From positions 1 through 60,802 of the forward strand of contig WQSK01000002.1 of the NCBI GenBank assembly GCA_009787915.1: a stretch of 60,802 bases of DNA, written 5' to 3'. A program made the position numbers and the translations under genes. The DNA comes from Bacillota bacterium (GTDB lineage Bacteria; Bacillota; Clostridia; Christensenellales; UBA1242). Shown here piece by piece: positions 8,287 to 45,149 of this stretch. The notes under the pieces were generated by a model that made no database searches, had not been told where the DNA came from, and was given only the letters and a program-made list of their open reading frames with translations. Position 1 is the first letter of the stretch. Each line of letters begins with the position of its first letter.

Positions 8287-8433
8287 ATGAGATTAGAAAA
8301 TAAAACCCCCTATCCAAACCGCTCTGTCGGCGACAACTCGGTGACCCCCTTTACGAAAAGGGGAATGGCTCTGTTAAAAAATTCCCCCTTATTAAAGGGG
8401 GTGTCGCATAGCGACGGGGTTTTTTATGGCTAA
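8287..8433 (+). CDS. 48-codon ORF embedded in a hairpin-rich leader, overlapping the gltX-like start (coding status uncertain)
   Basis: AAAGGAG lies 9 nt upstream of ATG 8287. It translates as MRLENKTPYPNRSVGDNSVTPFTKRGMALLKNSPLLKGVSHSDGVFYG. The stop TAA 8431-8433 overlaps ATG 8426 of the next gene. Too short for the ORF track. Confidence 0.3.
   Translation: MRLENKTPYPNRSVGDNSVTPFTKRGMALLKNSPLLKGVSHSDGVFYG
8339..8405. repeat. Inverted pair of a GC-rich palindromic repeat (GTGACCCCCTTTAC-N-AAAGGGGAAT / ATTCCCCCTT-N-AAAGGGGGTG)
   Basis: Hairpins CCCCTTT/AAAGGGG (about 8346-8364) and CCCCCTT/AAGGGGG (about 8384-8401). A further possible outer pairing is AAAACCCC (8302-8309) with GGGGTTTT (8417-8424). 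The same core recurs at 33047-33073 on the other strand. Confidence 0.6.
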
Positions 8434-9688
8434 ACAAGTTTTCCGTATCGCACCAAGCCCGACTGGGGAATTGCATATAGGGACGCTTGGGATGGCGTTG
8501 GTTAATTACATGATGGCTAAGGCCTCGGGCGGCAAGTTTTTAATCCGCATTGATGACACAGACACCGCCCGAACAATCGAGGGTGCGGAGAAGCGTTTGC
8601 TTGAGGGGCTTGGTAAATTTGGTATTGTTTTTGACAACCCAAAGAATATTTTAAGACAATCAGAGCGTGGTGACATATACAAAAAAGTCGCCGAGGATTT
8701 GGTTAAAAGAAATTTGGCCTATCACGACGACGGGGCGATTCGTTTGAGGGCGCCACAAAACAAAGAACCAATCAAGTGGGATGATATGGCGCGGGGGGCA
8801 ATGTCTTTGCCTGCGATTGACCGCGACCCTGTAATTTTGAAATCAAACGGTTTGCCGCCGTATAGCCTCGGTCACATTATCGACGACACCGAAATGGGAA
8901 CAACCGTTGCGGTGCGCGGGGAGGAATGGATTGCCTCAACGAACGAGCATATTCAACTCTACAACGCCGTTTACAACAAAGATGTTTTTAAAAAAACAAT
9001 TCCTACCGCGTGGAAGTATTGCCACATCCCTGTAATTTGTATATTGGACAATGGGAACAAGCGAAAACTCTCTAAACGCAAAGACCGAGAAGCCCTTGTT
9101 GAAAACTTTTTGACCGAGGGTTATCCGACCCGTGCGGTTATTGAATATCTTTTGACGATATACAATACGGACTACGAAATTTGGAGAGAGCAAAATCCAA
9201 ATGTCGATTGGCGCAAGTTCAACTTTCGCAGTGAAAAAATTGGTTCCAACAGCCCATTGTTTGACCGCGACAAGTTGGATTCTATTGCACGAAATATTAT
9301 CGCCGAGATGACGATGAAAGAACTTGAACCCGAGGTGCGAAACCACTTTGGGGATAAATTAAGCGAAGAACAATACAAAAACGTGTTTACCCTTTTGGCG
9401 ATTGACCGAGGAACCGAAAGACCGCGAAAAGACATTTGCAAGTACAGCGAAATTTTGACCGAGTTTGATTATTTGTTCAAGCCCGTAAAAATGACGCCTT
9501 TGTTAAAAAAATATGCCGAACTCATCAGCGGGGTTTCGGACAAAGATACGTGGTTTCCGCTTGTGAAAGAAAAGGCAACAGATTTTGGCTTTAAAAACGT
9601 GCGCGAGTTCACGCAGGCTGTGAGGGTGGAACTCACGGGGCGCGAGAAATCAACCGACCTTTATACAATATCCAAGATTTTGCTTTGA
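8426..9688 (+). CDS. gltX: Glutamate--tRNA ligase-like class I synthetase (short, 420 aa)
   Basis: FRIAPSPTGELHIGTLGMALVNYMMAKASGGKFLIRIDDTD (HIGH region), RQSERGDIYKK, KLSKRK (KMSKS-like). Confidence 0.75.
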   Translation: MAKQVFRIAPSPTGELHIGTLGMALVNYMMAKASGGKFLIRIDDTDTARTIEGAEKRLLEGLGKFGIVFDNPKNILRQSERGDIYKKVAEDLVKRNLAYHDDGAIRLRAPQNKEPIKWDDMARGAMSLPAIDRDPVILKSNGLPPYSLGHIIDDTEMGTTVAVRGEEWIASTNEHIQLYNAVYNKDVFKKTIPTAWKYCHIPVICILDNGNKRKLSKRKDREALVENFLTEGYPTRAVIEYLLTIYNTDYEIWREQNPNVDWRKFNFRSEKIGSNSPLFDRDKLDSIARNIIAEMTMKELEPEVRNHFGDKLSEEQYKNVFTLLAIDRGTERPRKDICKYSEILTEFDYLFKPVKMTPLLKKYAELISGVSDKDTWFPLVKEKATDFGFKNVREFTQAVRVELTGREKSTDLYTISKILL

Positions 9689-9695
9689 GGTCGCC

Positions 9696-10835
9696 TTGAA
9701 CAAAAATCACGCACTTTTGTATTTACACACATTTTTAATGCGCACAGGAAAGAACGTCACCTCTGTGTTTTCGGCCGTGCTCTTGTACAGATTGGGGTTT
9801 GATGTATCTTTTATACTCTTGTTCATTGGGTTAATGTTCGGGCTCATGGGTTTGCTCTCTCCGCTTAGTCCATTTCTTGTTTCACGGATTGGATTTGTCT
9901 GGAGCCACGCCATTGGCAACGCATCACTTGCCGTAGGGAGCCTATTACTTTTATTGGGTGATTTTAGTGCTGTGACATTTGTACTTTCGTTTATATTTTT
10001 GGCTTTGGCGGGCGGGATAAACCACCCCATAGGTCACATGGTCAAAGCGACGTTCATAGACGACAAAACAAGGGGGCGGACAAATGCAAAAATAATGATA
10101 GTATCGTCACTAAGCATCATTCCCGCGTCGCTTCTTGTTGGGTTGTTAATGGATTATGCTTTTGCGCTTTATATCTTTATGATTGTTATTTTGCTGGCGA
10201 CAATTGTCCCAATATATTTTCTTATGAGAAAACAAGAGCCCACCCGAAAATACAAACTGCGTGAACCGTACAAAAACTTTTTTGATAAATCTTTTTCAAG
10301 GTATATACCGCAAATGTCGCTCCAAGCCTTCCCGATAATTGAGGGTGCAATCATCGCGCTTTTTATTTATCTTTTGGTTGGCGACATAGCCACAGTCGCG
10401 TACATTGTCATTGCGGCGGCAATTGTTGAGATAATTGCAATATATATTTTTGGTCGGAGCAAAGACAAGTACGGGCGAAAAGCCTTTTTGTTTTCTACAA
10501 TATTAAGGTCTACGGCATCTTTGATTTTGGCATTTGTGAACTTTACGATATGGCTTGTAACGTTCGGCAGAATTTGGTTGGTGTTTACGGCACGAATCCA
10601 TGACACCTCCGTAAACGTTTTGGTTCAAAAAGCAACAACTGAGTCCACCGACCCGATTATATTCACAACGTCAAAAGAAATGGTGTTGTGCTTTACCGAG
10701 TTTTTGGCACTCATGATGTTAAGCGTTTTGGCTTTGTTTATTCACGAAACCGCGTTGGTTGTAATATTTGTTTTGTCTTTTATCTCCGTGTGGGCGATTT
10801 ATTTTAGGTGGCTATACACGGCAAGACGAAAATAG
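9696..10835 (+). CDS. Polytopic membrane protein, MFS-like
   Basis: 379 aa with about 10-12 hydrophobic segments. No specific signature recognised. Confidence 0.55.
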   Translation: MNKNHALLYLHTFLMRTGKNVTSVFSAVLLYRLGFDVSFILLFIGLMFGLMGLLSPLSPFLVSRIGFVWSHAIGNASLAVGSLLLLLGDFSAVTFVLSFIFLALAGGINHPIGHMVKATFIDDKTRGRTNAKIMIVSSLSIIPASLLVGLLMDYAFALYIFMIVILLATIVPIYFLMRKQEPTRKYKLREPYKNFFDKSFSRYIPQMSLQAFPIIEGAIIALFIYLLVGDIATVAYIVIAAAIVEIIAIYIFGRSKDKYGRKAFLFSTILRSTASLILAFVNFTIWLVTFGRIWLVFTARIHDTSVNVLVQKATTESTDPIIFTTSKEMVLCFTEFLALMMLSVLALFIHETALVVIFVLSFISVWAIYFRWLYTARRK

Positions 10836-40626: not shown

Positions 40627-41337
40627 ATGGATAATATTAAAGAACTTTTGACTTTGGCAGAGGGTCGTATCAGCACACAAGCCAAACTGAAAAACATTGA
40701 AAGAAACTTCAACTTGTTTTTGTCAAACTCGGATTTTCTCACAAAAAACCTGTGGGTATTGAACCAGTCCAACCCAGAACTCGGGAAACTTATGTATCAC
40801 CTTGGTTCGTTCGCGCCCCAAGTATATGCCCAGGGTTTAAGCGAAGCCTTTAAACGCAGCAACAAACCATATGACGCGCGCGTAGTCAAAGTGGTCGACG
40901 GAGATATTAACTTGCAAGAGGGCTACTACGACGAAATCCGCGGCCGATTAAAAGCGTCGAGAGAAAACGGGCGTGCAATATCTTTGTCAGAGAGTGTTTA
41001 TATTGGCAAAGAAAATCTAATTGGAACCATTAAAAACGGTGAGAGTGTTTTTACGAACTCTTATTTGGACGAAGAAGAATTGGACCGCGCAATTGATAAC
41101 CCTGCGACCCTTGAAACCCTAGACCGCCCTATCTTCCCGTTCGATGCCCAAGGCAGGGCTTGCTTGTTTGCATTTTTGAATGGGTATGATGTACCAACGA
41201 CATACAAAAACCACATATGCCCAAAAGTAAAAGTGCCAAATAGCCGTCTGCACAAAGATTTTATAAACTATGTCACCGCACGACAAGTTGACAAAAATAT
41301 AACCGACCTAGATATTGACAATTTTGATTTTTCGTGA
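40627..41337 (+). CDS. Hypothetical 236-aa protein, paralog A (pairs with 44442-45149)
   Basis: MDNIKELLTLAEGRIST...NPELGKLMYHLGSFAPQVYAQGLSEAF...DNPATLETLDRPIFPF... Shares blocks with paralog B (DPELAQFMYKIGSFNAEKLAEYLNESF; NDPATLMGIERRIYPF). Confidence 0.6.
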   Translation: MDNIKELLTLAEGRISTQAKLKNIERNFNLFLSNSDFLTKNLWVLNQSNPELGKLMYHLGSFAPQVYAQGLSEAFKRSNKPYDARVVKVVDGDINLQEGYYDEIRGRLKASRENGRAISLSESVYIGKENLIGTIKNGESVFTNSYLDEEELDRAIDNPATLETLDRPIFPFDAQGRACLFAFLNGYDVPTTYKNHICPKVKVPNSRLHKDFINYVTARQVDKNITDLDIDNFDFS

Positions 41338-41343
41338 TATAAT
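41315..41343 (+). promoter_or_regulatory. Perfect-consensus promoter TTGACA-17-TATAAT, 6 nt before ATG 41350
   Basis: TTGACA 41315-41320, 17-nt spacer, TATAAT 41338-41343. Embedded in the 3' end and stop of paralog A. Confidence 0.6.
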
Positions 41344-41349
41344 AATAAC

Positions 41350-41433
41350 ATGAACCAAAGTTGCAAATTCAAAGGAATTGGACTTCACCATCACCATGTG
41401 GGCAAAGCACCGCATGGTTTTATCTGTAACTAA
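41350..41433 (+). CDS. Candidate leaderless His-rich leader peptide (27 aa)
   Basis: ATG AAC CAA AGT TGC AAA TTC AAA GGA ATT GGA CTT CAC CAT CAC CAT GTG GGC AAA GCA CCG CAT GGT TTT ATC TGT AAC TAA translates as MNQSCKFKGIGLHHHHVGKAPHGFICN. There are four consecutive His codons plus a fifth. Confidence 0.55.
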   Translation: MNQSCKFKGIGLHHHHVGKAPHGFICN

Positions 41434-41458
41434 TATTATTTAAAACGAACCATGTGAA

Positions 41459-41493
41459 ACCGCTTTGCCGAAACACCGTGCAAGGCGGTTTTT
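41459..41493 (+). terminator. Intrinsic terminator of the candidate attenuator
   Basis: ACCGCTTTGC (41459-41468) pairs with GCAAGGCGGT (41480-41489) over 10 bp including one G-U, followed by a T-run. Its 5' arm can alternatively pair with GGCAAAGC at 41401-41408. Confidence 0.65.
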
Positions 41494-41548
41494 AGTTGTC
41501 GCAACTTTTGGTTCAAAAAATAAATTAAAATTTAAGGAGAAAATAAAA

Positions 41549-42538
41549 ATGAATAATCTTGAAAAAATAAAAAGAGAAAGTAATAAGAAAACGTGCGGCG
41601 TCATATGCCCGCGACAAGAAAAAAAGTGCAAGACGAAATACGGTTTTGGATTCAATAGGGCATCCCTTTTGGATTTCGGTGTTATCGAAAAAGAACCGAA
41701 ATACTGTATTTCAACGGAGGACGGAGCCGAAATAATGGATGCATGGAATGTAAAAGGGCGAAAACCTCTTAGCCCCGAAGAACTTGACGAGGTGGTTTTG
41801 AAAAACAGGAAACTTACCCCAGAGTACATGATGAAGATAAAATACGGGGCAAGACTCTCCGTTGCCCTCCCAAGCGGAATAATGATAGGGAGAGCATATG
41901 AACTATTTGCAAGGGCAGGACTTAGGAGTCGCGATTTTGAAGAAAAGTTCGACGATAAAACCTATGAATACCAAGGTCCCGAAGCGGTTTTCAATGTAAC
42001 AAAACCAAGCGACGTACCCCAAGCAATCGACGGAGGCTATGACGACTTTGGTATCTGTGGATTCGATTCAAAACGCGAATACGAACTCTCGAACATCACC
42101 CCAAGCGGTGCTATGGCGGGTCGTGGATTTGTATCGGATTTTATACCCGACTTGGGACTTTGCAACATGACGTTTAAGGTCTGTGGTCTGCCTGAAAATA
42201 AAAAGAAATTCGCCGAACGCCTCAAAAACGGTCTGCCAATCGTCGTTGCAACCGCATACCCCGCGATTGCAATGGACTATTTGTCCAAAAAATACCCGAA
42301 CGCAAGATTCGACATCCGAACATTAAACGGCAAAGTCGAGAGTGCACCCGCCCGATACGGCGACGATGCAATTTTTGAAATTGTCGGCACAGGCGCGGCA
42401 CTTGAAGCCAACAGACTTGAGGTCTATAGCAACGCTATGGACAACCCAACACGGCTCTTGTTATCACGTGTAGCAATCCGAAAAGACCCACGTATAATGC
42501 AAGTTGCCGAGAAGATTAAAGAACAGGTGCTTTCATGA
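41549..42538 (+). CDS. hisG: ATP phosphoribosyltransferase (HisG short-form)-like protein with a roughly 105-aa N-terminal extension
   Basis: AAGGAG lies 8 nt upstream of ATG 41549. LSVALPSG..., KPSDVPQAIDGGYDDFGICGFDS, VVATAYPAIAMDYLSKKYPNARFDIRTLNGKVESAPARYGDDAIFEIVGTGAALEANRLEV align block by block with short HisG as I recall it. The N-terminal Cys/Lys-rich extension is unassigned. Confidence 0.7.
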   Translation: MNNLEKIKRESNKKTCGVICPRQEKKCKTKYGFGFNRASLLDFGVIEKEPKYCISTEDGAEIMDAWNVKGRKPLSPEELDEVVLKNRKLTPEYMMKIKYGARLSVALPSGIMIGRAYELFARAGLRSRDFEEKFDDKTYEYQGPEAVFNVTKPSDVPQAIDGGYDDFGICGFDSKREYELSNITPSGAMAGRGFVSDFIPDLGLCNMTFKVCGLPENKKKFAERLKNGLPIVVATAYPAIAMDYLSKKYPNARFDIRTLNGKVESAPARYGDDAIFEIVGTGAALEANRLEVYSNAMDNPTRLLLSRVAIRKDPRIMQVAEKIKEQVLS

Positions 42539-43848
42539 AAAAGTTTGAATTATACTGCCTCGGCGGAAACGAAACCGCGATTATAACGAAGAATTTGCCA
42601 GATGCAGAAGCCCTTGTTTTATCAAAACAAATCATGCGCGAAAACCCCGAAGTCGAACAAGTCGCCATTATAGAGTCCGTGAAAAACAATGTTTGTAATT
42701 TCCGAATGACAGGGGGCGAGTTTTGCGGCAACGCAGTCCGCGCGGTTGCCGAGTTCATGAGGCGGAACTTTGGTTTTTCAAAATCGAAAATCATTATAAA
42801 CGGCATTGAAATCGAGGGCGAGAGCAATGGGCGGACAAGCACCATAACCCTGCCCAAGAAAAGTTTGTTGCGCGAGGTCAAAACCCTAGGCGGTCGGACC
42901 TATGTTGTGATGAACGGAATCACACACGTTGTTGTGGATGGTCGGGGCGATGAAGTTTTGGCTCGTAAAATCAAAGACGACGCAACCGCCCGCGGAATCA
43001 CAAATGACGCGTTTGGCGTAATGTTTTTGGACGGAAACAAAATCAACCCATTTGTCTGGGTGGAAAAAGCCCAAACCTTTTTCAACGAAACCGCATGCTT
43101 AAGCGGGAGTATCGCGGTGTCTATCTTTTTGAACCAAACAAAAATTATCCAACCAACTAATGAAACCTACACAATTGAAATCACCGACACGAAAATAACG
43201 GCAGGTGGCAAAGTTGCCTTCATAGACAAAGAAACCACGACCAAGTTGGAGCAAGGTTTTGTTAAATACGCCGACCTTGTAGGCATCAAAAAATGCAATC
43301 CGAAAACGGACAAAGAGGCTTTGGTGACTTTTGGTGATGTGCTTGTGCGTGAAAGTGTTTTTCAAAAACTTGGCATGGTAGACAAAAATTTGAAGGCCAT
43401 TAACCCAAATTTGGAATTGGTTGTTGTCGAGGGCTGGCGACCCATGAAAGTCCAAGAGGCAAAATTCAACGAAATCCGCGAGCAACTTAAATTCAAATAT
43501 ACCGACGAGCAGGAACTACTCGAAGCCGTGCACCGCCTTATCGCTGTGCCAAGCGTTTGTGGGCACCCAACGGGCGGAGCCGTAGACGTGACAATCCGCG
43601 ACACGATAACGGGGGAACTTTTGGATTTCGGCACACCGATTCACGACTTATCTACAAAAGACGTTTATACATTCTCGCCACGGTTTGATGAAAACTCTGT
43701 CGGGCGCAAAAATCGTGAACTCCTGCGCCGTGCCATGGTGGAACAAAACTTTGCCCCGTTTGATGGCGAGTGGTGGCACTTTTCATACGGCGACAAAGAA
43801 TGGGCCGTGTACTATGGTCTTGAACAATTTTTGTATGGCGCACGTTAA
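42535..43848 (+). CDS. Fusion protein: DapF-like PLP-independent epimerase/racemase domain + VanX/DdpX-like D,D-dipeptidase domain
   Basis: N-terminal half: LGGNETAII, MTGGEFCGNAVRAVAEF and NETACLSGSIAV (two Cys blocks as in DapF CGNG / ACGTG). C-terminal half: LVVVEGWRPMKVQ, SVCGHPTGGAVDVTI, DGEWWHFSYGD (VanX-type motifs). ATG overlaps the hisG-like stop (ATGA). Confidence 0.65.
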   Translation: MKKFELYCLGGNETAIITKNLPDAEALVLSKQIMRENPEVEQVAIIESVKNNVCNFRMTGGEFCGNAVRAVAEFMRRNFGFSKSKIIINGIEIEGESNGRTSTITLPKKSLLREVKTLGGRTYVVMNGITHVVVDGRGDEVLARKIKDDATARGITNDAFGVMFLDGNKINPFVWVEKAQTFFNETACLSGSIAVSIFLNQTKIIQPTNETYTIEITDTKITAGGKVAFIDKETTTKLEQGFVKYADLVGIKKCNPKTDKEALVTFGDVLVRESVFQKLGMVDKNLKAINPNLELVVVEGWRPMKVQEAKFNEIREQLKFKYTDEQELLEAVHRLIAVPSVCGHPTGGAVDVTIRDTITGELLDFGTPIHDLSTKDVYTFSPRFDENSVGRKNRELLRRAMVEQNFAPFDGEWWHFSYGDKEWAVYYGLEQFLYGAR

Positions 43849-43853
43849 GAACT

Positions 43854-44399
43854 GTGGTATATTTATTTGTGCAAATAATCGGAGTTACGGGTTTAAGCGG
43901 AAGCGGCAAGACCACATGGTGTGCAAAACAAAATGGCGAGCACATCGAGGTGGACCGTTTTGTGTATGCGGTTTTGGACGAGGCCGACTTTATCGACGCC
44001 GTTGTGAAATTGCTGGGTACTGATATCTTTGTTGTGAAAGGCAAAACGGACAAACGGAAACTTGGAGAGATTGTTTTTGCGTCTGACGCGGACACGATTT
44101 TTCAGTATAACAAACTCGTTTGGAATTTTGTAGAACCAAGGATGCACACGGCGATTGCTTCGGCACGCAAAACAGGCAGGGATATTTTTATTGACTATCT
44201 TTTTTTGACGCACCCGCTGGCAGGGCTTTGGGAACTTTGCACGAAAAAAGTCCTAATCACGCGCGACGACAACAAGCGGTTAATGGCAGTAGCAAAACGC
44301 GATGGAGCCACTGTTGATTATATCCGCGCCCGTGACACTGCATTCCCGTTTACATTCAACGAAAAAGAATTTGATACTGTAATTCGGGTTGATGTATAG
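43854..44399 (+). CDS. coaE: Dephospho-CoA kinase
   Basis: IIGVTGLSGSGKTT P-loop, about 180 aa. An alternative GTG start exists at 43869. Confidence 0.8.
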   Translation: MVYLFVQIIGVTGLSGSGKTTWCAKQNGEHIEVDRFVYAVLDEADFIDAVVKLLGTDIFVVKGKTDKRKLGEIVFASDADTIFQYNKLVWNFVEPRMHTAIASARKTGRDIFIDYLFLTHPLAGLWELCTKKVLITRDDNKRLMAVAKRDGATVDYIRARDTAFPFTFNEKEFDTVIRVDV

Positions 44400-44405
44400 T
44401 GCCTA

Positions 44406-44434
44406 TTGACAAAGCATCTAAAAAGTGATACATT
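44406..44434 (+). promoter_or_regulatory. Sigma-70-type promoter TTGACA-17-TACATT, 7 nt before ATG 44442 (leaderless)
   Basis: Read directly from the sequence. Confidence 0.5.
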
Positions 44435-44441
44435 ATAATTG

Positions 44442-45149
44442 ATGAGCAATATTAATAAAGAAATATTTGAAACGGCAAAAGCCCATTTCAATGCGCAAGC
44501 CGAGCAAATACGGCTAAGTAAAGCGTTGTATTTTGCAATCGATGCACGAAAGGACAAAGCCCTCTTTAACATGCCTTTGGCAGAATTAAAGGCAAAAGAC
44601 CCTGAACTCGCACAATTTATGTACAAAATTGGTTCTTTTAATGCAGAAAAATTGGCGGAATATTTGAACGAGTCCTTTGACATCTATTTCAAGAACGACA
44701 ACTTTAAATTTTCTGCGACCACAAAGCGCACTGTAAACGACATAACTTTGTGTGAGGATAACTTTGACAAAATAGTCGAATTACTGAAAAAGGAAAACCC
44801 AAAAAAAAGAAACCCAGGATTGTATGACTATGTACCAGTTTGGGGTCACGAAAGGCATTTAGGCGACATTTATAATGGGCAATATACTTTTGGTTCGTCG
44901 TTTATAACAGAAGAACAAAAGCAAATGGCGATAAACGACCCTGCGACTCTTATGGGGATTGAAAGGCGTATCTATCCATTTAGCGATGTAAAGGCTGAAC
45001 ACTCTCTGTACTCACTTCTCGCGGGGCATACTGCATGGATGGAGGTAACGTCGCCCAACCGCGACAGGACTATAGAAAAAGTATTCGGTAGATGTGTTCC
45101 ATACGTAGTCGGAAGAAATATACAAGAACTTGGCGATGATTTTGTTTAA
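44442..45149 (+). CDS. Hypothetical 235-aa protein, paralog B (pairs with 40627-41337)
   Basis: See paralog A. Same length class and shared sequence blocks. Confidence 0.6.
   Translation: MSNINKEIFETAKAHFNAQAEQIRLSKALYFAIDARKDKALFNMPLAELKAKDPELAQFMYKIGSFNAEKLAEYLNESFDIYFKNDNFKFSATTKRTVNDITLCEDNFDKIVELLKKENPKKRNPGLYDYVPVWGHERHLGDIYNGQYTFGSSFITEEQKQMAINDPATLMGIERRIYPFSDVKAEHSLYSLLAGHTAWMEVTSPNRDRTIEKVFGRCVPYVVGRNIQELGDDFV

Follow-up and report, generated by a model that had tools for sequence, protein, structure and literature searches.

An operon with a histidine attenuator that pairs a HisG-like protein with a racemase-amidohydrolase fusion in a Clostridia genome: a possible histidine salvage module

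The first 60,802 nucleotides of contig WQSK01000002.1 (assembly GCA_009787915.1, from a Bacillota bacterium of the Christensenellales), hereafter the window, contain a transcriptional attenuator with four consecutive histidine codons, located ahead of two overlapping genes. The first encodes a degenerate HisG-like protein and the second a 437-residue fusion of a cofactor-independent racemase of the HisR/CntK type and a VanX-type zinc amidohydrolase of family M15, both with their catalytic residues intact. Racemase and M15 genes, fused or adjacent to each other, recur in many lineages close to histidine-related genes and histidine regulators. Our favoured reading, to which we would give about an even chance of being right, is that this is an operon induced by histidine starvation, in which the bifunctional fusion would release and racemise D-histidine (D-His) with the HisG-like protein as a non-catalytic partner. 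Each of the parts comes from a known superfamily and attenuation by His leaders is well known; it is the combination of genes that is apparently undescribed. An earlier note on this DNA, made from its letters alone, knew of no description of the domain fusion or of the gene pairing, and the literature searches done here agree with it: no description was found of the racemase::M15 fusion (:: denotes a fusion) or of its linkage to GNAT acetyltransferases, histidyl-tRNA synthetase (HisRS) and HisG, including M15::HisG fusions, and nothing on the membership of this module in the histidine regulon or on an M15-linked HisG clade that lacks the active-site arginines. The fusion is already deposited and automatically annotated in databases, whose pipelines give proteins of this module the labels 'D-alanyl-D-alanine dipeptidase/diaminopimelate epimerase' or 'ATP phosphoribosyltransferase'.

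The histidine attenuator ahead of the hisG-like gene

A His attenuator had been proposed upstream of the operon, and all its elements were found: a leader peptide with a run of four His codons, a 1:2 hairpin, an antiterminator and an intrinsic terminator (Table 1). The run occupies leader codons 13-16 (CAC CAT CAC CAT, 41386-41397), and the 215-nt leader folds far better than shuffled controls (z = -5.6). Since the leader ATG is located about 7 nt past the -10 hexamer and is not preceded by a Shine-Dalgarno sequence (41338-41352), its mRNA may be a leaderless one. In the antiterminator, 41401-41420 pairs with 41447-41469 (GGCAAAGC:GCUUUGCC stacked on CCGCAUGGUU:GAACCAUGUG), its 5' strand being inside the leader open reading frame (ORF), directly downstream of the His codons. 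This fold was computed on the transcript as present before synthesis of the 3' arm of the terminator; in classical minimum free energy folding with a masked ribosome, masking alone did not abolish the terminator. That the antiterminator is visible only as long as the terminator lacks its 3' arm is as expected for kinetic control.

According to this anatomy, a ribosome stalled at the first His codons would leave the antiterminator strand free and permit read-through, one that reaches the leader stop would cover that strand and cause termination, and when no ribosome is present hairpin 1:2 would compete for the strand, so that the terminator would form. The elements themselves are observed in the sequence and its computed folds, and we infer from them that the operon is regulated by attenuation. 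The leader has no match to Rfam families (T-box, His_leader) at the gathering threshold, nor did a permissive scan (E<=10) of 41200-41700 return any Rfam match. A T-box or Rfam His_leader was also sought upstream of the module, with none found in the window or in eight other loci; RF00514 is the family that we take to be the relevant His_leader model.

Table 1. Features of the operon in the window, with positions from the first letter of the stretch
Feature	Position	Strand	Remarks
Promoter	41315-41343	+	TTGACA, 17-nt spacer, TG-extended TATAAT; 12/12 match to consensus
Leader peptide ORF	41350-41433	+	27 codons, MNQSCKFKGIGLHHHHVGKAPHGFICN followed by stop
Hairpin 1:2, pause/anti-antiterminator	41393-41418	+	5' arm overlaps His codons 3-4
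Antiterminator	41401-41469	+	-24.4 kcal/mol; sequesters terminator 5' arm
Intrinsic terminator	41456-41494	+	G+C-rich stem then U5; -21.5 kcal/mol
hisG-like gene, 329 aa	41549-42538	+	ATG start; Pfam HisG
hisG-like, N-terminal extension	41549-41830	+	Lineage-specific
hisG-like, short-form HisG core	41831-42535	+	
Fusion ORF, 437 aa	42535-43848	+	Overlaps hisG-like stop (ATGA)
Fusion, N-terminal domain, HisR/CntK-type cofactor-independent racemase (putative)	42535-43233	+	aa 1 to ~233; PF26317
Fusion, C-terminal domain, VanX-type M15 zinc amidohydrolase	43240-43848	+	aa ~236-437; PF01427
coaE-like P-loop kinase gene	43854-44399	+	Pfam CoaE, 38 bits vs cut-off 27, E 1.6e-9

The racemase-M15 fusion and the HisG-like protein

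The overlap of the hisG-like stop with the start of the 437-codon fusion, as well as the two ORFs, are as previously described. The fusion protein is identical on two independent contigs, and this, together with the approximately 60 homologous fusions described below, rules out an assembly artefact. Domain and structure searches (Pfam, Foldseek) assigned the two halves to the CntK_N racemase type and to M15, and not to unrelated families. Although the N-terminal half has no match in our local copy of Pfam, its precomputed domain is PF26317 (CntK_N). The two-cysteine signature noticed before (EFCGNA, ETACLSGS) is there: C64 belongs to GGEFCGNA and C188 to ETACLSGS, and neither cysteine varies across the alignment of fusions. 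The suggestion that this might be a CntK-type histidine racemase also gained support, HisR and CntK being the best matches by sequence, profile and fold. A phmmer search of the PDB returned HisR (9cr6/9cr1, E 2e-11), then CntK (7e-5), and no true DapF; among NCBIfam models the HisR model was best (64.5 bits), followed by that of CntK (37 bits), with no DapF model; and Foldseek, run with an AlphaFold model (mean predicted local distance difference test, pLDDT, 74.8), ranked HisR (1e-13) and CntK (4e-12) ahead of PhzF (4e-9) and DapF (6e-8). The residues proposed by Lamer et al. to bind histidine in HisR (N18, E65, G68, N69, E206, S211; PMC11602996) align to N11, E62, G65, N66, E185 and S190 of the fusion. 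HisR A210 aligns to L189, and the hydrogen bond at this position is presumably made through the backbone. An enzyme of the HisR/CntK histidine racemase type is hence the best-supported assignment for this half, from sequence and modelled fold. The scores are far from the NCBIfam equivalog cut-offs (64.5 bits vs 400 for NF052224, 37 vs 300 for NF033599). As side observations, the racemase half has its closest homologues (52-57% identity) in stand-alone proteins 242-260 aa long. The single locus examined for these (P0007; L003, 8001-8741) is surrounded by helix-turn-helix regulators and genes resembling those of conjugation, and neither M15 nor his genes are near.

The C-terminal half matches Pfam Peptidase_M15 (VanX family, PF01427) at aa 270-422 with 54.3 bits against a cut-off of 27 (E 2e-14), and the VanX/DdpX motifs reported earlier are present: GWRP (R302), HPTGGAVDV (H344, D351) and EWWHF (E412, H415). 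In the alignment to VanX (1r44), H344, D351 and H415 correspond to the Zn ligands H116, D123 and H184, and E412 to the catalytic base E181. R302 is invariant in the subfamily, and we take it to be equivalent to the transition-state arginine of VanX, R71. The hallmark motif of the subfamily is EWWHFSYGDKEWA. Here too the equivalog cut-offs were missed (37.6 bits vs 320 for VanX, 37.1 vs 176 for DdpX), and by their sequences the two domains are related to HisR, CntK and VanX only distantly and are not their orthologues.

The product of the hisG-like gene matches Pfam HisG at aa 152-324 (75.8 bits, E 5e-21) and passes TIGR00070 marginally (80.5 bits vs a cut-off of 75.75). The top 50 Foldseek matches of its model are all HisG structures, the short forms (HisGS) first, with TM scores of 0.76-0.83 against HisGS targets; residues ~95-329 constitute a short-form HisG core, in which the phosphoribosyl pyrophosphate loop region is recognisable. 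Compared with HisGS of Psychrobacter arcticus, R32 is replaced by I (I111), R56 by E, K57 by Y, C115 by M and D179 by G; the reference sequence used was validated by R32, R56, K57, C115 and D179 being at their published numbers. R32 and R56 stabilise the pyrophosphate leaving group, and the single mutants R32A and R56A have 25-fold and 42-fold less activity (PMC9734150). The loss of both arginines, one of them by charge reversal, therefore argues that the window copy is a poor ATP phosphoribosyltransferase, or not one.

Only eight other relatives of this protein were retrieved from a collection of 5.8 billion sequences. In the window protein and its three closest relatives (57-61% identity) LPSG(R/K/I)M replaces the canonical PKGR motif. 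In the next HisG clade the motif is canonical, and one member (P0129) is a genuine hisG of a hisG-hisD operon. The window clade, a small and divergent group of short-form HisG, is always linked to M15 and its closest relatives are under His leaders, with the arrangements leader - hisG-like - M15 (L093), leader - hisG-like - hisS - Rac::M15 (L092; Rac, racemase) and leader - Rac::M15 (L094). On these sequence grounds, the HisG-like protein is most likely a non-catalytic partner with a ligand-sensing or scaffolding role and not the first enzyme of histidine biosynthesis. The earlier suggestion of a binding partner stands for the window copy, which lacks both arginines, but does not extend to the HisG proteins linked to the module in other lineages, which are canonical, catalytic-looking and accompanied by HisE, HisIE or HisZ.

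The unassigned N-terminal extension of the HisG-like protein was confirmed, with a length of ~94-100 aa instead of 105. It is unique to this protein and contains 16 Lys and 4 Cys within the first 100 residues, its pLDDT is below 50 for residues 1-72 and ~50-56 for 73-100, and it has no homologue by phmmer or hhalign and no confident fold. The closest homologues begin exactly at the HisG core. From its sequence, the extension looks like an in-frame insertion, because an AAGGAG Shine-Dalgarno sequence (41534-41539) is present ahead of the ATG at 41549 and residues 1-8 are similar to those with which the nearest homologue begins. A TTG at 41465 was discarded as a spurious start since it is inside the terminator, the Shine-Dalgarno sequence preceding the ATG at 41549. 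The idea that the extension is the decayed M15 domain of an ancestral M15::HisG fusion, prompted by a MAFFT alignment and weak phmmer matches, was also discarded (hhalign probability of the extension alone against the fusion profile, 0.85%).

Recurrence of the module and its surroundings in the window

Relatives of the fusion are abundant: about 470 were recovered by word-indexed search and 3470 cluster representatives by exhaustive search. Domain composition was counted on the best 120 of the ~470 matches, where about 60 combine CntK_N and M15, 20 are M15::HisG(::HisG_C) fusions of 506-626 aa and one is a SLOG/LOG-like::M15 protein, the remainder having a single domain. In racemase-M15 fusions either domain can come first, and Rac::GNAT and GNAT::Rac fusions exist as well. 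The neighbourhoods of fusion homologues were surveyed in 84 loci, 80 of them from one genome per species, and in 35 racemase and M15 were found fused or no more than 6 kb apart, in most cases as direct neighbours. Within 6 kb of these 35 pairs there was a GNAT acetyltransferase in 16 loci (8 of them with a racemase-GNAT fusion of one order or the other), HisRS or HisZ in 13, HisG in 10, a TrpR-family YerC/YecD gene, mostly directly upstream, in 8, HisE in 7, and a histidine ammonia-lyase above the hutH equivalog cut-off and an AstE/AspA-type deacylase in 4 each. For a single-copy gene in a genome of 1-3 Mb, we would estimate a proximity of HisRS by chance of ~1%, against the 37% observed.

The carriers include metagenome-assembled genomes (MAGs) of gut 'uncultured Clostridia' and of Oscillospiraceae, as well as Saccharibacteria, Paceibacterota, Roizmanbacteria, Peribacteria, one Micrarchaeota archaeon, and Micavibrio and other Alphaproteobacteria; in a Nocardia (L030) M15 is found beside a HisG-like gene and HisRS. 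Gene orders vary around a common theme, such as hisS - Rac - GNAT - M15::HisG - hisE (L005/L006), hisZ - hisG - Rac::GNAT - hisIE - hisS - M15 (L014), hisS - hisZ - hisG - Rac - GNAT - hisH - hisA - hisF - hisIE - hisS - M15 (L012), hisG - hisE - Rac - GNAT next to M15 (L035-37, Saccharibacteria), and, in the archaeon (L019), Rac - GNAT (a GNAT-cluster gene) - M15 followed by a histidase (HutH-cluster) gene. In no module locus did the annotated genes include hisB, hisC or hisD. Genes for tRNA-His directly flank the module HisRS at L005 (6644-6720), L006 (6611-6686) and L011 (7005-7162, in two tandem copies). The Clostridia MAG of L012 has two HisRS genes (899-2218 and 8646-9962) with 34% identity, plus hisZ, and the module-linked HisRS of different lineages (L005, L011, L012, L014, L015, L021) are mutually 48-85% identical. 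These sequences suggest that the module HisRS is a distinct, possibly mobile, starvation-induced type. Separately, SLOG-cluster4/LOG-like genes are fused or adjacent to M15 at L088 (973-4932), L089 (7466-9299) and L030 (9040-16877), with AstE_AspA, PfkB, nucleoside hydrolase, HAD, methyltransferase, HisRS and RelA/SpoT genes nearby; these loci are a nucleotide-flavoured variant of the module.

Signs of histidine regulation are also repeated. Besides the closest relatives (L092, L093 and L094, the last with merely two adjacent His codons), His leaders are found in eight further lineages. A short ORF with HHH or HHHH followed by a strong terminator precedes M15::HisG at L005 and L006, Rac::M15 in Patescibacteria at L009 (9690-9929), Rac-GNAT-M15 in Paceibacterota at L010 (820-1002) and hisS-M15 at L015 and L021, and such leaders are also present at L012 (two), L014, L018 (Roizmanbacteria, 8380-8542), L092 and L093. 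Runs of His codons were found in 9/78 regions upstream of module genes, one of which (L035) is an overlap with a coding sequence and not a leader, and in 11/783 other upstream regions (Fisher p = 2e-5); for the other amino acids, no excess of runs comparable to that of His was observed upstream of module genes. To our knowledge, ribosome-mediated leader-peptide attenuation has not been reported in Patescibacteria (the candidate phyla radiation), in which the survey reveals leader-peptide attenuators. The YerC/YecD protein encoded beside the module in some loci belongs to the family identified as the histidine repressor of Gram-positive bacteria, also called HisR (a name it shares with the racemase), and candidate His-leader attenuators with 3-5 His codons precede some his operons of Firmicutes (Ashniev et al., PMC9413887). 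The presence of His leaders and of YerC/YecD as a neighbour implies that two unrelated histidine-sensing devices would control the module. In addition, short ORFs ending in ...HH(S/L)SHHHEHPAH were noticed about 3 kb upstream of stand-alone M15 genes in Verrucomicrobia (L045, 6526-6693) and Waddliaceae (L049, 6605-6745), possibly as the His leaders of a different operon.

With respect to the surroundings of the operon, the statement that no his biosynthesis genes follow the fusion holds throughout the 60.8-kb window, where no HisH, HisA, HisF, HisIE, HisZ, HisD, HisRS, HisE, GNAT or HutH was found. Within +/-10 kb there is no his-biosynthesis Pfam family, the sole PF00977 match being a Dus-type TIM-barrel gene, and no CntL or CntM Pfam families, as would be expected in a staphylopine-type cluster, appear in that interval or in the other annotated loci. 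The next gene is coaE-like, as had been noted, and starts 6 nt past the fusion stop. No terminator-like site was found at 43848-43854, only two weak stem-loops, both within the coaE ORF, and the next promoter-like site after the gene is at 44406-44434; the coaE-like gene is probably co-transcribed with the fusion. None was found in the other module loci of the survey. A role in anti-phage defence was considered and discarded, PADLOC giving no matches. The operon is flanked by two paralogous genes of ~236 aa (40627-41337 and 44439-45149, both on the + strand) with a common NDPATL..R.I(F/Y)PF motif, no significant Pfam match (a weak one to GldB_lipo, E 0.021, is below the cut-off) and no PADLOC match; this placement suggests a site between tandem duplicates.

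Proposed function, alternatives and comparison with known systems

In the reading that we favour, scarcity of charged tRNA-His would stall the ribosome on the four leader His codons, allowing the antiterminator to form and transcription to continue into the operon. The VanX-type domain would then free D-His from a small amide, which could be a D-His-terminated dipeptide or N-acyl-D-His, and the HisR/CntK-type domain would turn it into L-His, to be used by histidyl-tRNA synthetase or, where HutH adjoins, by histidase. The HisG-like protein, translationally coupled to the fusion, would sense a ligand or serve as a scaffold. The substrate and the roles of GNAT and HisG in this scheme are what we infer from the context, and the hypothesis, already raised in the earlier note, that such a module responds to histidine and serves to liberate or racemise it appears to be supported by the presence of HisRS, HutH, HisR/YerC and His leaders in many lineages. 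A function in supplying L-His is favoured over one in making D-His because of the predicted induction by starvation, the linkage to consumers of L-His and the archaeal carrier. The existence of this carrier also makes D-Ala-D-Ala from the cell's own wall an unlikely substrate, as archaea are not expected to have it.

Several points weigh against this proposal. The enzymatic roles of the module members are deduced from sequence, fold and gene context, and since NCBIfam sets its equivalog cut-offs far above the scores obtained for the racemase and M15 domains, their specificity could differ from that of HisR and VanX. We know of no natural pool of D-His dipeptides or D-His amides, and a racemase made under starvation would deplete L-His too if the equilibrium were not pulled by its consumption. 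In the salvage scheme there is no part for the GNAT protein of 16/35 loci, and a purely regulatory HisG does not explain the canonical HisG plus HisE (with HisI, HisZ, HisHAF in some cases) of other lineages. The host is a Clostridia-type bacterium, as its SecA is 74% identical to proteins of Christensenellaceae/Firmicutes MAGs, and the thought that the window came from a genome of the candidate phyla radiation without amino-acid synthesis was discarded for this reason; such a host may possess all the his genes outside the window. Finally, the recurrence of SLOG/LOG-like, nucleoside hydrolase, HAD, PfkB and NUDIX neighbours means that the true substrate may bear a ribosyl or nucleotide part. 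A broader reading, which we hold more tentatively, is that of a widespread, so far unrecognised branch of the histidine regulon, spanning Clostridia, bacteria of the candidate phyla radiation, a DPANN archaeon and Alphaproteobacteria, in which racemase and VanX-like amidohydrolase, often with GNAT, would form a physically coupled salvage or deracemisation machine that feeds a dedicated, starvation-induced HisRS and to which HisG would have been recruited. HisG would be fused to M15 and still catalytic in some lineages, and in the window clade it would have been exapted as a non-catalytic histidine or nucleotide sensor, in a parallel to the derivation of HisZ from HisRS.

The recurrence of GNAT is at the centre of an unlikely alternative, in which this enzyme would acylate one enantiomer of histidine and the racemase and an amidohydrolase (M15, AstE/AspA or M20) would complete an irreversible D-to-L conversion of N-acyl-His. 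The racemase has a GNAT beside it or joined to it in 16/35 loci, AstE_AspA deacylases and M20 peptidases recur nearby, and histidine regulation would fit equally well. However, there is no GNAT in the window, the racemase retains N11 and E185, proposed to bind a free alpha-amino group, and VanX-type enzymes cut amides of D-amino acids, which would yield D-His and not L-His. Geobacillus is said to carry out an irreversible conversion of this kind with a GNAT, an N-succinylamino-acid racemase and a desuccinylase. The roles of acyltransferase, racemase and metallo-amidohydrolase also co-occur in many module loci, but the Geobacillus racemase has an enolase-superfamily fold whereas that of the module has the DapF fold and is apparently built for free His, its hydrolase comes from a D-specific lineage, and the window lacks a GNAT. 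That the module produces D-His, as part of an opine metallophore, as N-acetyl-D-His or for a wall precursor ending in D-His, seems improbable as well. The VanX-like domain would in that case remove competing D-Ala-D-Ala, following the logic of VanT/VanXY; CntK is a precedent for a D-His building block, the pair of racemase and D,D-dipeptidase resembles VanC-type operons and GNAT could trap D-His. Nevertheless, using up L-His would be counter-productive when histidine starvation is the inducer, no CntL/CntM-type or Ddl-type genes were found in the neighbourhoods, the linkage is to the L-His consumers HisRS and HutH, and one carrier is an archaeon.

We consider it still less probable that the module protects HisRS from an antimetabolite of the histidyl-nucleotide type, by means of a second HisRS, acetylation of the amino group of the toxin by GNAT, cleavage by the amidase, and processing of the nucleotide part by HisG and nucleotide enzymes. 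A blocked HisRS would look to the cell like a lack of histidine and so induce these genes. This would resemble MccE/MccF, which confer immunity to microcin C. The 48-85% identity among module HisRS copies and the second copy in L012, with 34% identity to the other, would be in keeping with such a role, as would the GNAT, nearest (weakly) to N-acetyltransferases for antibiotics and amino-acid analogues, the recurrence of SLOG/LOG-like, nucleoside hydrolase and HAD genes, and the Nocardia locus, which resembles a small-molecule cluster. But it leaves the histidine racemase, the most constant partner of M15, without a role, no such inhibitor is known, PADLOC gave no matches, and the linkage to HutH and regulation of the HisR/YerC type suggest ordinary histidine metabolism. 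Chance proximity of a normal first his gene, a plain DapF and a wall D-Ala-D-Ala dipeptidase unrelated to histidine is very improbable. The HisG-like protein narrowly passes the TIGR00070 cut-off, the M15 domain passes the threshold of the Pfam VanX family and a sister-clade member, P0129, is in a hisG-hisD operon; on the other side, sequence, profile and fold all place the N-terminal half nearer to HisR/CntK than DapF, the linkage or fusion of racemase and M15 recurs across phyla with HisRS, HutH and His regulators, HisG lacks both catalytic arginines, and the genes are ATGA-coupled under a His attenuator.

The cofactor-independent histidine racemases characterised to date number two, and the module gives a relative of theirs a regulatory and genomic frame, as well as a context in which to test the physiological role of one of the two, HisR of Fusobacterium nucleatum. 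Several of the carrier lineages depend on a host and presumably cannot synthesise amino acids. The salvage reading, if true, would constitute a new route to histidine for auxotrophic symbionts and gut anaerobes, with D-His compounds as nutrients and HisG reused outside biosynthesis; if the broader one is, orphan histidine racemases, among them that of F. nucleatum, would gain their first physiological role, and D-His or its amides would be a significant environmental source of histidine.

His-leader attenuators are known in his operons of Enterobacteria, with candidates in the Bacillus cereus group, Peptostreptococcaceae and Erysipelotrichales (PMC9413887). That of the window resembles them in having a short ORF with 3-5 consecutive His codons and alternative antiterminator and terminator hairpins, but would govern a racemase-hydrolase module instead of a biosynthetic operon; its leader does not match the Rfam His_leader, a model built from enterobacterial sequences. 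The HisG-like protein shares its fold with short-form HisGS of the P. arcticus HisGS/HisZ system and differs from it in the extra N-terminal insertion of ~94 aa, in the lack of hisZ or other his genes in the 60.8-kb window and in belonging to a clade always found beside M15. With VanX and DdpX (M15D), the hydrolase has in common the Pfam family, the His-Asp-His Zn ligands, the catalytic Glu and, with R302 taken as R71, the transition-state Arg, while its neighbours are histidine-related genes and not vanHAX or ddp, and one carrier of the module is an archaeon. CntK of Staphylococcus aureus (6JIS) belongs to the cntKLM metallophore cluster, and HisR of F. nucleatum (9CR1/9CR6) is an orphan gene whose neighbours do not include M15, GNAT or HisRS; the similarity network in the HisR paper had a length limit of 308 residues, so fusions were excluded. 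The racemase of the window has ~25% identity to HisR and ~17% to CntK. All three have the DapF-type two-domain fold, the same two cysteines in GGEFCGN and E-x-x-C-x-SG and the same Asn and Glu proposed to bind histidine, and what sets the window domain apart is its fusion to an M15 hydrolase and its probable histidine control.

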